A DNA stretch of 64,000 bases from Escherichia coli. GTDB taxonomy: Bacteria; Pseudomonadota; Gammaproteobacteria; Enterobacterales; Enterobacteriaceae. The stretch lies in NCBI RefSeq assembly GCF_030384885.1, contig NZ_CP128613.1; one strand, given 5' to 3'. The position numbers and the translations under genes were made by a program. How positions within the stretch are numbered: the first letter of the stretch is position 1; every line of letters begins with the position of its first letter. The notes below the pieces were generated by a model, which worked only from the letters and a program-made list of their open reading frames with translations, was not told the origin of the DNA and ran no database searches. Positions 54,369 through 58,048 of the stretch are shown here, piece by piece.

Positions 54369-55592
54369 TTATGGGATTATATTCTGGTAATGATTTGATA
54401 AGCGAATTCTTTTGCCAGTTGATATTTCTATTTCCACCCCATAATTTATAGTTTTTTCATCAGGTAGCGATCTCTTTAAATAAGGTGCGTATGACATTTT
54501 TTTAGGATGAAACGTATCGTGTTGAAATATTTCGAATTGATATTCAGACATTTGTGCCCATGTTTGAATTTTATTGTATCGGGAGAGTGTCGTAAAGGCT
54601 TTAACTTGCTTATAACATTGTTTTTGGAATTCTTGCTGATATTTTAATATGTCGTTGTATGAAAGATTGGTTATCCTGGCCTCTAAAAACTTAATTATCG
54701 TCGAAGCAACTTCAGCTTTTGCTCGTAAAAAGTTGTCATTAATGGTTAATAATGTTGAAAATAAACCTTCAATTTGTTTGTCAAGATATTGTTCATCTTT
54801 ATATAATTTATGGGTAGGGTGTTCCTTATGTGAAAAAATAGTGTCACATAAATTTGCGTCAGTGAAATTTATATTAAGTAGATCTTCGAAATAAAACCTT
54901 GACAAGGTTAGAACGAACCCGGACAGGTTCTGTCCTGTCATATTGAAATCAATAAAGTTGGTTCCGGCAAAGACTTTCATTCTGTTTTTATTTTCACTGT
55001 GCTCAATATATAACTTCGTCATTTTTTGATACAGGCTTTGAATATCTTTTATATTAGTTGGTAAGTCAGCTCGTTGTTCAGCAATAAAATTAGTATCTGA
55101 AAACATGGTTTGGACACTGAATGTTATGGGTATTCCCTCTTCTACGCTAATTTTAGTTATGATTGCCTTGTCGGGTTTAGGATTAGCGACAACAATGATT
55201 CGACATTCAGCACTTTTGTTCTTTTCGTATCTAATGTTATTAATCTGATTAAGTATTGATTGTGTCTGTTGCGTAAGTGGTGTCGAACTTATCGTTTCAA
55301 TGTTATTAATAAGTTTTACAAGTTGAGCCACAACTTTTGAGTAGTCTGCATTTGTATATGTGGTGTTCGTGTGGCACGCATTAATTTGTTGGAGTTGTTG
55401 TTGCGCTAAATCAAATTGTTCAGCGTTATATCCTTCTTCAGACAATGAAAAATTAATGGGTTGCTGTTCTTCCTGATTATCACAAGGCCACATCGGTGTG
55501 TTTGGTGTTTTAATATTGTCGGTATCTGTTGTGCGGTTATAAATATCGCCGTGATATGTATTTATCATACCTGGGGTAAAGTCAATTGACAT
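54369..55592 (-). CDS. yhiS: YhiS-like protein, intact (407 aa), pentapeptide-repeat-like central region
   Basis: ORF track; AT-rich; position between slp and ars region corresponds to yhiS, which in K-12 is split by IS5; no IS seen here. Confidence 0.7.
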
Positions 55593-56172
55593 AACATTCC
55601 TTATTGTTCATCTATTTCGCTAAATTTTTGCAAATCGGAGAATTAGAACAGGAATGGATTTTCTTCTACGCGGAAATAAACACAATGCGTCATATCTTCC
55701 TGATATAATTACCTTTAACTTCCCTTTCATTTCCACCCGGTAATATTTGTGTATAAAAAAAGGGCAGTGATAGTATCGTAAAGGAAAACATTAACAACTA
55801 TCAAAAAGCGCTCATTTTAAAAAGTTATGATGTTCTCCGATAGTGTGTGAAGTGATATTTTTGTGATGTTTTAGATGTGTAATAATGAACCAGGTTAAAG
55901 TGTATTTAAAAATGTGTTGTATTGGCGACTGAAATCTGCCCTTTAAAAGGGGGGATAGCACTGAGACAAAGAGGCATTGCTTCTCCGATAAAATGTCAGA
56001 GAAGCATGATTGCGTGGTGATTGTCGATTGATGACTTACTGACGGATCCGTCATCATTCTCAAAGCATTAGTTAAGTTATTTGTGATTTTTAAGGATTAT
56101 CCTATCTATGATTTTCTACTCAGAAGGATAAGGCACTCACAATGCTCCTTATAGTTTACTGCTGGCATCTAT

Positions 56173-57186
56173 TTAAAATAGCATTTGAGTCAAATAGCCC
56201 ATCAAGATAGCCATACCTAAGATAACCGTCAGGAATGCAACTATCATCGGTATTCTGAACATTGATTTAAGTAATATCACTTCCGTCAGACTTGCGCCGG
56301 CACTGCCGATGATTAATGCCATTAATGCTCCCAGACCCATTCCTTTTGTCATCAGAACAGATGCCAGAGGGATAACCGCCTCTGCCCGGATATACAGCGG
56401 GATTCCGACAACGGCGCTCAATGGGATGGCGAAGGGATTATCTGCCCCTGCATGAGCGGCAATCCACGCTGAGGGAATAAAGCCATAAATAAAAGAGCCT
56501 ATTAATACCCCTAACAAAAGATATGGCAGTACATCTTTAAACTGTTGCAACGCATCTTTGGTGGCTAGTTTTATGGGATTAATACTTACCACAGCTTTGG
56601 TACTGCAACAGTTTACTACCGGTTTCTCAATGGCTTTAGCCGCTGGACTACAGCAACTCACTTTTATTGGCGTATATGTCGTCCCCGGCGAAGTTTTGGC
56701 TGGAGAGCAACAATTTGCTGATGAGCTTTTACTGGCAATGATATGACGTTCAAATCTCAGAGAATCCAGGATAATACTGGCAAGTACGGAGACGCCGGCG
56801 GCGATAATCGCGTACAACAAGGTAACTTTCCAACCAAAGGTCACCCACATTAACCCGACGATAATGGGATTAAGTAACGGTGAAACAAATAAAAAAGTGA
56901 GAGTCGGACCAAACCCGGCTTTCGCTGACAACAATCCACGTAGCATGGGTATTGTCGAGCAACTACAGAACGGGGTAACGGCTCCCAACAGAGCAGCCAG
57001 GAGATAGCCTCTCCCTTTTCTGGCCCCCATCATCTGCTGGATTTTATGGTCTGGCACCTTTTGTCTTATCAGGCTGACACCGGCACTAATCACCATAAAC
57101 AGCAAAGAAAGCTCGACGGCGAGAAACACAAACATCTCTGCGGCATCTTGCAGCATCGCAAGCCAACTACTCATAAGTAACCTCAT
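56173..57186 (-). CDS. DUF318/ArsP-like permease with TPFCSCS motif and Cys-rich loop (337 aa)
   Basis: ORF track; multi-TM; motif GAVTPFCSCSTIPM; loop with three CC pairs; divergent from an ArsR-family regulator. Confidence 0.65.
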   Translation of the reverse strand: MRLLMSSWLAMLQDAAEMFVFLAVELSLLFMVISAGVSLIRQKVPDHKIQQMMGARKGRGYLLAALLGAVTPFCSCSTIPMLRGLLSAKAGFGPTLTFLFVSPLLNPIIVGLMWVTFGWKVTLLYAIIAAGVSVLASIILDSLRFERHIIASKSSSANCCSPAKTSPGTTYTPIKVSCCSPAAKAIEKPVVNCCSTKAVVSINPIKLATKDALQQFKDVLPYLLLGVLIGSFIYGFIPSAWIAAHAGADNPFAIPLSAVVGIPLYIRAEAVIPLASVLMTKGMGLGALMALIIGSAGASLTEVILLKSMFRIPMIVAFLTVILGMAILMGYLTQMLF

Positions 57187-57281
57187 TGAATAAAACTATA
57201 TTTCCAGAATAATCGAAATGAAGTTCAGATCAAGATATTTCTGGTATTATCGAAATATCAACCAGACAGAGGGGGTGACAC

Positions 57282-57602
57282 ATGCAATTGGAAGAGGTCG
57301 CTAAGGCACTGAAAGAGTTAGGTCATCCGACCCGTTTGTTCATATTTAAGCATCTGGTCAAAGCGGGGGAACAAGGGTTGCCGGTCGGTGAGTTGCAAAA
57401 GCAGCTTGGGATACCCGGCTCTACACTCAGTCACCATATTTCAGCACTGGTATCGGTAGGGTTGGTCAAACAAAACCGTGAGAGTCGGACGCTGATGTGT
57501 GTTTCGCAATACGCAATGCTGGAAGCGATAATTGAATTTTTATGTGAGGAGTGCTGCGTAAACAGCAAAACAGATGGCGAAGGAGCCACGAAGAACAAAT
57601 AA
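57282..57602 (+). CDS. ArsR/SmtB-family metalloregulatory transcriptional repressor (106 aa)
   Basis: HTH signature (LGHPTRLFIFKHL...VGELQKQLGIPGSTLSHHISAL) and C-terminal CEECC cysteine cluster. Confidence 0.7.
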   Translation: MQLEEVAKALKELGHPTRLFIFKHLVKAGEQGLPVGELQKQLGIPGSTLSHHISALVSVGLVKQNRESRTLMCVSQYAMLEAIIEFLCEECCVNSKTDGEGATKNK

Positions 57603-57622
57603 GGGGGCATATCCCCCTATAG

Positions 57623-58048
57623 TTATTTCAGGCGTTTACCCGCTTCATCAACCACTTTTTCGCCATCTTCCTTGGTGAACGCGCCTTGTTGCGCATCTGG
57701 CAGAATTTCCAGCACCACTTCTGAAGGGCGGCACAGGCGAGTTCCTAGCGGCGTCACCACAATCGGGCGATTAATCAGAATCGGGTGCTGAAGCATAAAG
57801 TCGATTAACCGATCGTCAGTAAATTTATCTTCTGCAAGGCCCAGTTCCTCATACGGCTCGACGTTTTTACGCAACAGCGCGCGTACGGAAATCCCCATAT
57901 CGGCAATGAGTTTGACCAGCTCATCGCGCGTTGGCGGTGTTTCCAGATAATAGATAATGGTCGGTTCTGTACCGCTGTTGCGGATCATCTCCAGCGTATT
58001 ACGCGACGTGCCGCAGGCCGGGTTGTGATAAATAGTAATGTTGCTCAT
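57623..58048 (-). CDS. arsC: Arsenate reductase ArsC (141 aa)
   Basis: ORF track; MSNITIYHNPACGTSRNTLEMIR - glutaredoxin-coupled ArsC catalytic Cys motif. Confidence 0.95.
   Translation of the reverse strand: MSNITIYHNPACGTSRNTLEMIRNSGTEPTIIYYLETPPTRDELVKLIADMGISVRALLRKNVEPYEELGLAEDKFTDDRLIDFMLQHPILINRPIVVTPLGTRLCRPSEVVLEILPDAQQGAFTKEDGEKVVDEAGKRLK

Follow-up and report, generated by a model that had tools for sequence, protein, structure and literature searches.

Three vicinal cysteine pairs in the central linker of an Escherichia coli ArsP/DUF318 permease: a candidate cytoplasmic tether for thiophilic substrates

Two characterised transporters frame what is known of the ArsP_1/DUF318 permeases (PF03773; TCDB 2.A.119). 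ArsP of Campylobacter jejuni exports methylarsenite (MAs(III)) and trivalent roxarsone, and does not export As(III) (PMC6205960), and SO_0444 is needed under Zn or Cu stress and is partnered by a ZntR-like regulator (PMC3219624). A C(S/T)C motif in the membrane (tPF-CSC in "cluster 2") is universal among ArsP homologues (PMC4435449), and in some proteins of the SO_0444 family CSC is replaced by USC, with selenocysteine in the first position, which supports a role of the motif as a metal ligand (bioRxiv 10.1101/2022.07.06.499078). ArsP has been assigned to the TOG superfamily, with two halves of four transmembrane segments (TMS) each and a hydrophilic loop of variable size between them (PMC7176098). 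Here we analyse a permease of this family encoded in a 64-kb stretch of E. coli DNA, which we call the window, and in particular its central linker, which carries three pairs of adjacent cysteines (CC pairs). To judge from the searchable literature, a central loop rich in CC has not been described for the ArsP/DUF318/PF03773/YraQ family. Our analysis indicates that the loop is real and under selection, and that it is very probably functional. The reading that we favour, with modest confidence, is that the linker is a disordered di-thiol tether on the cytoplasmic side, which would capture a thiophilic substrate for the intramembrane CSC site.

How does this permease compare with the systems already described? 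C. jejuni ArsP shares with it PF03773, the intramembrane C(S/T)C, ArsR-type control and linkage to ars genes. The likeness is one at the level of the family. The E. coli permease has its own divergent regulator and promoter and stands outside the ars operon. Moreover, accounts of ArsP stress only the cysteines of the membrane CSC, to which the E. coli permease adds a CC-rich central loop. SO_0444, a Cu/Zn efflux protein, and SaoE represent the nearest curated families, which belong to the fold family of the permease and carry CSC or, in some members, USC, but SO_0444 is under a ZntR/MerR-type regulator whereas the E. coli permease is under an ArsR-type one. For the loop itself the closest functional precedent, by analogy and not by homology, would be the tail of the plant pump HMA4, whose cytosolic di-Cys motifs bind Zn with nanomolar affinity, are required for function in vivo, and drift between species in pair number and sequence (PMC6255694). 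The P1B-ATPases HMA4 and HMA2 have in common with the permease multiple CC pairs in a divergent, unstructured appendage of a metal exporter, cytosolic by prediction in the permease. On the other hand, HMA4 is an ATP-driven P1B pump with 11-13 CC pairs and a His stretch in a C-terminal tail, whereas the permease is presumably a secondary carrier with three pairs in a loop between two repeats. Vicinal pairs in the context of arsenic resistance are also found in ArsD (Cys12-13, Cys112-113 and Cys119-120; PMC4562236), which hands As(III) to the efflux system (PMC6205960). Unlike the pairs of the permease, which are fused into the transporter, those of ArsD belong to a free-standing folded protein whose client is the ArsA ATPase, and the peptides of 42-105 aa that we describe below for short-loop relatives have no ArsD domain.

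The linker comprises about residues 145-206 of the permease (56557..56742, minus strand) and lies between two structural repeats, as delimited by low AlphaFold2 (AF2) confidence (pLDDT), by composition and by hypervariability among homologues. Positions 56586-56724 of the window translate on the minus strand as SSANCCSPAKTSPGTTYTPIKVSCCSPAAKAIEKPVVNCCSTKAVV. Six of the 62 linker residues are Cys (~10%), and all six occur as isolated CC pairs 15-19 residues apart, which by translation are Cys155-Cys156 (TGT TGC, 56707..56712), Cys174-Cys175 (TGC TGT, 56650..56655) and Cys189-Cys190 (TGT TGC, 56605..56610), all on the minus strand. When the linker was shuffled, three adjacent pairs arose from its six cysteines in 547 of 1,000,000 trials (analytic value 5.3e-4). 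Metallothioneins typically have 15-30% Cys, in CxC/CxxC clusters that form metal-thiolate clusters; the linker has neither this very high Cys content nor such clusters. An earlier reading of the DNA by a model, which we call the original prediction, had described a cysteine-rich loop with three CC pairs inside a permease, and the translation and the full-length ArsP_1 match given below bear it out, with coordinates good to within 3 nt and a peptide shifted by one codon. Its description of a hydrophilic, Pro/Ser/Thr-rich loop also holds: the linker is hydrophilic, Ser, Lys, Ala, Pro and Thr are abundant in it, and it has eight K+R against a single D+E. Its further claim, that the loop is a sequence repeated three times, stands only in a loose sense, for a short peptide motif, [NS]-C-C-S-[PT], which recurs at spacings of 19 and 15 residues. 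DNA similarity among the three motifs is weak, however (15 nt at 73% and 13 nt at 85%), so that a recent tandem duplication as their source is unsupported.

The comparison with homologues is what carries our main conclusion. Among the 120 nearest clusters at 90% identity, 107 could be parsed by anchor motifs, and in every one of these 107 the loop, 56-104 aa long, holds 4-10 Cys and one to four CC pairs. The membrane cores of homologues from Escherichia, Salmonella, Proteus, Citrobacter and Aeromonas share 84-98% identity with that of the permease, as against 22-64% for the loops. The identity of the loop falls from 64% in E. fergusonii to 31% in the Salmonella/plasmid type, 27% in Citrobacter and 22% in Aeromonas, and each of these keeps two to four CC pairs. 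Within E. coli, comparison of the loop with two other alleles gave ratios of synonymous to non-synonymous changes of 2:1 and 7:1, and the codons of Cys156 and Cys174 show synonymous changes between TGT and TGC, a purifying pattern of substitution. As judged from these alignments, the CC pairs are selectively retained in a loop that otherwise evolves fast.

In the wider family the same preference is seen at greater distance. An exhaustive search of clusters at 50% identity gave 94 full-length representatives (at most 50% identical), of whose loops 32 have at least one CC, up to a maximum of seven in a loop of 131 aa. Relative to shuffles within each loop, CC is in 4.6-fold excess (62 seen, 13.5 expected) and CxC was seen 26 times where 12.5 were expected, while CxxC, with 11.7 expected, was not seen at all. 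Successive CC pairs are separated by a median of 16 residues and flanked by small residues, S, A or N before and S, P, A, T or G after. These statistics indicate that selection favours adjacent thiols on a freely evolving spacer and not the sequence around them. The preference for CC together with total avoidance of CxxC would be explained if, as we suppose, a vicinal pair closes poorly into an intrapair disulfide.

The permease gene is the minus-strand frame 56173..57186 in our program-made list of open reading frames (ORFs). RefSeq places the start at 57174, which gives a 333-aa "permease" (WP_032304001; 56173..57174), and the frame remains open back to 57186. Positions 56000-57700 of the window are 100% identical to the chromosome of E. 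coli strain 2013C-4282. The protein matches ArsP_1/DUF318 over its full length (E=1.1e-52, residues 14-334 on positions 4-293 of the 294 in the model). We asked whether it could be an SO_0444 or a SaoE protein and rejected both assignments, because against these equivalog models it scores 108.7 bits (NCBIfam NF033936, cut-off 300) and 83.4 bits (NF040736, cut-off 325), and the permease with 20 tested relatives spans only 78-126 bits on the two. No SAO genes were found around it in the neighbourhood annotation of the identical RefSeq strain, and its relatives are named only "permease" in the databases. By these comparisons it belongs to an unnamed ArsP_1/DUF318 clade.

The motif that would be served by the linker is TPFCSCS, residues 67-73 of the permease. 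Its Cys70-Ser71-Cys72 (56959..56967, minus strand) is the presumed substrate site, given its near-invariance in an alignment of 99 sequences, where F69 never varies and C70, S71 and C72 are kept in 90% of the sequences or more, and given a helix break in the AF2 model. The model, built on the same alignment, has a mean pLDDT of 88 and a pTM of 0.84, with the core above 90. Low confidence (pLDDT 48-58) is confined to residues ~146-199, indicating that the linker is predicted to be disordered. The pattern of helices repeats on either side of the loop, so that the permease has the two homologous halves and the variable hydrophilic loop of ArsP_1 proteins. Helices 55-66 and 71-83 break exactly at the TPFC of TPFCSCS, and helices 249-260 and 264-276 break at YIR. 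Because these breaks imply three membrane crossings and one hairpin for each repeat, the linker would lie opposite both termini.

Charge statistics fit this hairpin topology with the linker inside. The mean number of K+R over the 99 sequences is 4.45 for L1, 1.2 for L2, 8.0 for the linker and 1.8 for L7, the segments proposed to be inside, and 0.97 for the N-terminus, 0.6 for L3, 0.5 for L5, 0.7 for L6 and 0.1 for the C-terminus, those proposed to be outside. Moreover, several short-loop relatives begin with a K/R-rich tail that holds KKCC, CSC..CC, CCC or CACAC and is followed by one extra transmembrane helix; this arrangement lends independent support to the topology, as it puts their N-terminal Cys tails, too, on the predicted cytoplasmic side and the N-terminus of the core outside. 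The original prediction had left the side of the loop, cytoplasmic or periplasmic, to be settled by topology prediction, and from the predicted fold and the charges we consider the cytoplasm likely, although the published scheme of TMS differs, as weighed below. An ArsB/INDY-like hairpin fold, as predicted here for the family, would depart from the published 4+4 TOG topology. ArsB, DASS/INDY and Pho90, of the Ion Transporter superfamily, have 430-540 structured residues against ~280 in the model of the permease, and the literature places ArsP in TOG. The permease has no detectable sequence similarity to solved structures such as these, or to any PDB sequence, and Foldseek on its model returned no match.

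Some relatives depart from the common plan in ways that we record here. One (P0162, 486 aa) has in residues 1-190 an N-terminal extension with a membrane segment "ITCCGFP", with a weak Pfam match to MerT (E=0.01) that is a hint only, and the linker between that segment and the permease core has five CC pairs (SSCC three times, SCC and PCC). Four others (P0160, P0171, P0176 and P0186) have LC(T/N)(F/I)S or VCTFS at the place of FCSCS, together with N-terminal tails of ~80 residues that are extremely rich in His, Asp and Glu and in three of the four almost free of K and R. Such a composition agrees with an N-terminus that is translocated to the outside, and it hints at a preference for other metals.

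Across a spacer of 95 bp (57187-57281), and transcribed divergently from the permease gene, lies the gene for an ArsR/SmtB-family repressor of 106 aa (57282..57602, plus strand; NCBIfam HTH_metalloreg, 61 bits). Its best match in the PDB is AfArsR (6J05, E=2.6e-10), with weaker matches to BigR (34.3 bits) and YgaV (32.7 bits), and on the NCBIfam model of BigR it scores 38.6 bits, far under the cut-off of 155. The segment FLCEECCVNSK aligns with LTENCCHGTR of AfArsR, so that Cys91-Cys92 fall on Cys95-Cys96. AfArsR binds As(III) through Cys95, Cys96 and Cys102, and SpArsR, which lacks Cys102, responds to MAs(III) only (PMC11868830); like the MAs(III)-selective SpArsR, the repressor has no Cys at the equivalent of Cys102. 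Its Cys73, Cys91 and Cys92 are conserved in E. coli, an IncHI2 plasmid, Aeromonas, Citrobacter and a metagenomic relative, and the repressor as a whole is far more conserved than the loop of the permease. Searches of the literature by its WP accessions and by guessed O157 locus tags found nothing relevant on it. In the spacer, two 22-nt repeats, ATATTTCCAGAATAATCGAAAT (57198-57219) and ATATTTCTGGTATTATCGAAAT (57235-57256), were found by repeat search and promoter scan (57198..57256); in each of these putative operators there is an ATTTC-N10-GAAAT, and the two jointly overlap -35/-10-like hexamers of the permease gene and of the repressor gene.

The repressor of this strain differs in two details from its counterparts. 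Its Cys88 (codon 57543-57545) gives FLCEECC. R occupies this position in the copies from other E. coli, plasmids, Aeromonas and Citrobacter, and M in one metagenomic relative, FLREECC being the form in other E. coli, plasmids and Citrobacter. With the extra Cys88, three cysteines would cluster close to the site at which sensing is presumed to occur. Its C-terminus is also longer (57570-57602; 106 aa) than that of the 98-aa form ending in SKIA in strains L002 and L003.

If the CC element is of use to the permease, what of relatives in which the loop is short and free of Cys? We examined the contigs encoding six such representatives, five of which had enough flanking DNA. The contigs of P0166 and P0182 were too short to show neighbours. 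In 5 of 5 a small hydrophilic Cys protein adjoins the permease gene: four have CC or CCC (42, 45, 73 and 105 aa), and the fifth is a Thioredoxin_3 protein with CPGC that overlaps the permease start. The predicted 42-aa peptide, MGIKDVLKKLKPQEQSCCSVEIEEKKEKNEKEQLDNNNCCNN, starts 13 nt past the permease stop and was found in two independent metagenomes, in a context of ArsD, ArsA and ArsR. A predicted 45-aa peptide with GCCD starts 34 nt downstream of its permease, a predicted 105-aa protein ending in SSGGCCCG and further residues overlaps the permease start codon, and a predicted 73-aa protein lies upstream, its end 36 nt from the permease, with SSCC close to the N-terminus and SCCG at the C-terminus. 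All five small proteins are without signal peptides and hydrophobic segments. For the sixth representative only 44 nt of contig follow the permease stop, and they hold a ribosome-binding site and an ORF starting MNWLQKLLRP, which resembles the other small peptides. The same scan of nine loci with long CC loops found no hydrophilic CC peptide, only the regulator and a few short hydrophobic ORFs containing CC. This distribution suggests that a CC element may work with the permease either fused to it or as a separate cytoplasmic partner. We tried SaoC as such a separate counterpart of the loop and rejected it, since SaoC has a signal or lipoprotein peptide.

The small CC/CCC ORFs lie at L016 3399-3527, L017 1046-1174, L020 3444-3581, L018 2187-2504, L023 1743-1964 and L022 947-990, and several share a similar amphipathic start, "xxLKKLL". 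They may constitute an unannotated family of small thiolate partner proteins.

In the mechanism that we propose, the linker would be a cytoplasmic, intrinsically disordered tether of an ArsP/DUF318 secondary exporter, with three vicinal di-thiol sites 15-19 residues apart. Each CC pair would chelate a thiophilic species in bidentate fashion, either a trivalent arsenical or antimonial, notably R-As(III), or an ion of Hg, Cd, Zn or Cu. Tethered at the cytoplasmic mouth of the transporter, these sites would raise the local concentration of the substrate, which could then exchange ligands to reach Cys70/Cys72, at the tip of the hairpin that faces the cytoplasm, and be exported. The ArsR-type repressor, whose own CC site probably responds to the same ligand, would switch the two genes on. 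Binding, hand-off and the identity of the substrate are what we infer in this scheme. As substrate we place R-As(III), As(III) or Sb(III) first, tentatively, and Cd, Zn, Hg or Cu second, as a possibility somewhat weaker again. Two thiolates suffice for a trivalent organoarsenical, and CC pairs serve as binding sites for biarsenical dyes such as FlAsH. We favour an arsenical or antimonial because of these two properties, because of the SpArsR-like site of the regulator and because of the ars neighbourhood, the gene pair lying immediately beside arsC in E. coli and beside arsRDABC in a Citrobacter prophage. The original prediction had proposed a loop for capture or sensing of soft metals or arsenicals. 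Predicted disorder, predicted cytoplasmic placement, the CC site of the repressor and the small CC proteins beside relatives without loop cysteines all fit the idea of capture, and the proposal is supported in part, but the loop would be an accessory one in which no single pair is essential.

Several observations weigh against our reading, or at least limit it. The characterised members of the family differ in substrate, MAs(III) for ArsP (PMC6205960) and Cu/Zn for SO_0444 (PMC3219624), and in Aeromonas and on plasmids the gene pair is found with no arsenic genes nearby. Single CC pairs have been lost in some natural alleles, where SCC is replaced by SSS, SYC or SCR, and because individual pairs can be replaced in this way the pairs appear redundant, none being essential by itself. 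Alignment of homologues, which the original prediction had called for, finds CC in all close homologues and enriched in diverged loops, but 34 of the 94 diverged loops, mostly short ones (22-40 aa), are free of Cys; of the remaining loops some are rich in CxC and some in His. Since about a third of the wider family does without it, the CC loop appears to be an accessory module outside the conserved core of the transport mechanism, and the Cys-free loops together with the losses of pairs would mean that it improves or modulates transport without being indispensable. Our assignment of the linker to the cytoplasm depends on the predicted fold and on charge statistics; under the published 4+4 TMS scheme (PMC7176098) the linker and both termini would share one side of the membrane, in which case the charge bias becomes ambiguous. 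The complementarity between fused loops and separate peptides rests on few loci and on predicted small ORFs. Finally, SaoC, the CC partner of the related exporter SaoE, is secreted; a role outside the cell is therefore also open to CC modules.

Could the loop do something other than deliver substrate? The same facts of CC retention and enrichment fit a regulatory sensor or a buffer, in which metal(loid) binding would gate or de-inhibit the transporter or the loop would sequester metal(loid) like a tethered mini-metallothionein. Regulation and buffering have both been proposed for the di-Cys tail of HMA4 (PMC6255694), the C-terminal CC pairs of ArsD have been linked to regulation (PMC4562236), and the number of pairs varies freely from one to seven, as expected of capacity or avidity and not of precise geometry. 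However, three or four sites per transporter amount to a negligible buffering capacity, and the free-standing CC peptides beside short-loop relatives look more like diffusible carriers than gates, so that we consider a sensor or buffer unlikely. If, on the other hand, the permease has eight full crossings, the strongly basic L1 inside would put the linker outside together with the N- and C-termini, and a loop facing the periplasm could receive the exported metal(loid) at the exit side or form disulfides. Eight hydropathy peaks, the 4+4 arrangement of the literature (PMC7176098) and the extracytoplasmic SaoC all speak for such a placement; the hairpin breaks of the model and the charges of the 99 sequences incline us to regard it as quite improbable.

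The module might also handle reactive sulfur or redox stress. In this case the CC pairs, like the cysteines of the repressor, would undergo persulfidation or oxidation, and a sulfur compound would be what the permease exports. The repressor does resemble BigR and YgaV as well, and plasmid and Aeromonas copies have no metal genes nearby. But AfArsR is the best match of the repressor, with the CC pairs aligned, and the BigR score is far under its cut-off; all characterised members of the family act on metal(loid)s, the gene pair adjoins ars genes in two settings, and complete avoidance of CxxC speaks against the design of a disulfide switch. We therefore judge this possibility to be very unlikely. 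As the original prediction itself had allowed, the loop could instead be a functionless low-complexity insertion, with its cysteines there by chance or composition. It is hypervariable in length and sequence, it is missing in many relatives, and single pairs can be lost. The alignment of homologues nevertheless disfavours this strongly, since CC is kept in all 107 close homologues in spite of a loop identity of 22-64%; the excess of CC over shuffles and the absence of CxxC in diverged loops, the purifying pattern of substitutions within E. coli, and a shuffle probability of ~5e-4 in this protein alone point the same way, and leave an insertion without function hardly credible.

The permease gene stands in the order slp, a yhiS-like ORF, the permease (minus strand), the ArsR/SmtB regulator (plus strand), and then arsC, arsB and arsR (minus strand). 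Between the convergent repressor gene and arsC a GC-rich hairpin that resembles a bidirectional terminator (57602..57618) was reported on both strands by a scan for terminator-like sequences, and it would separate the permease-repressor module from arsRBC. Because it has its own divergent promoter region and this hairpin before arsC, the gene pair appears to be an autonomous unit beside arsRBC. In many E. coli strains the interval from the regulator to arsC is longer by ~78 bases (L002 4580-4701, as against 57603-57622 of the window), and strain PT62 has IS621 there; the junction of the module with arsC would therefore be an insertion hotspot. On the other flank, the yhiS-like ORF (54369-55592, minus strand) is open for 407 aa, is annotated as a frameshifted pseudogene in the identical RefSeq strain and a 407-aa "hypothetical protein" in others, and has no match in NCBIfam.

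The gene pair occurs in 2224 of 5426 complete E. coli genomes (~41%, at 80% coverage or more). A diverged allele of it is carried by 648 plasmids of PLSDB, 456 of them conjugative, from Escherichia, Salmonella, Klebsiella, Shigella, Citrobacter and others, typically beside IS26 or IS1 at the border of antibiotic-resistance regions, often ones bounded by IS26. No metal genes were found near the plasmid copies. In Aeromonas the pair stands alone, and in Citrobacter it comes after arsRDABC, the two together forming cargo (L007/L008 1230-7092) of a lambdoid prophage, with lambda P and DnaT upstream and DinI, RusA, holin and lysozyme downstream. On the IncFIA/IncX1 plasmid pZ1323CEC0005_1-4 (L013 6001-9576) the permease and regulator are followed by IS1, ~1.1 kb and dinQ, and on the E. 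coli chromosome dinQ lies just past arsRBC. The plasmid module may have been captured from the chromosomal ars locus and have lost the ars genes later, at IS1.

A broader proposal can be made, although we give it limited credence and consider it doubtful as a whole. The CC "beads" would be a portable accessory module of ArsP/DUF318 permeases, present as a central linker, as an N-terminal tail with an extra helix or as a tiny CC peptide in trans, and would shuttle thiolate-bound substrate to the CSC. The permeases would have an ArsB/INDY-like and possibly elevator-type fold, and the E. coli and plasmid version would be a widespread and unrecognised determinant of metal(loid) resistance.

Disordered metal-binding appendages have precedents in the His-rich loops of CDF and ZIP transporters and in the di-Cys tails that plant HMA pumps carry. 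What is new here is a CC-rich appendage, predicted to be disordered, in a bacterial family of presumed secondary carriers for which such a loop has not been described, and, if our reading is correct, the idea of a disordered metal-binding appendage would be extended to bacterial secondary carriers. With six cysteines and natural alleles of one to seven pairs, the loop is a simple system that can be tested. Moreover, if the pattern holds, the alternation between a fused loop and a neighbouring CC peptide would provide a genomic rule for finding new small metallochaperones. The two-gene module of an ArsR-like repressor and a CC-loop permease is widespread on E. coli chromosomes and on plasmids, most of which are conjugative. 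Thus, if the loop does trap arsenicals or soft metals, the module would be a candidate for the co-selection of resistance plasmids by metal(loid)s or by organoarsenical feed additives.

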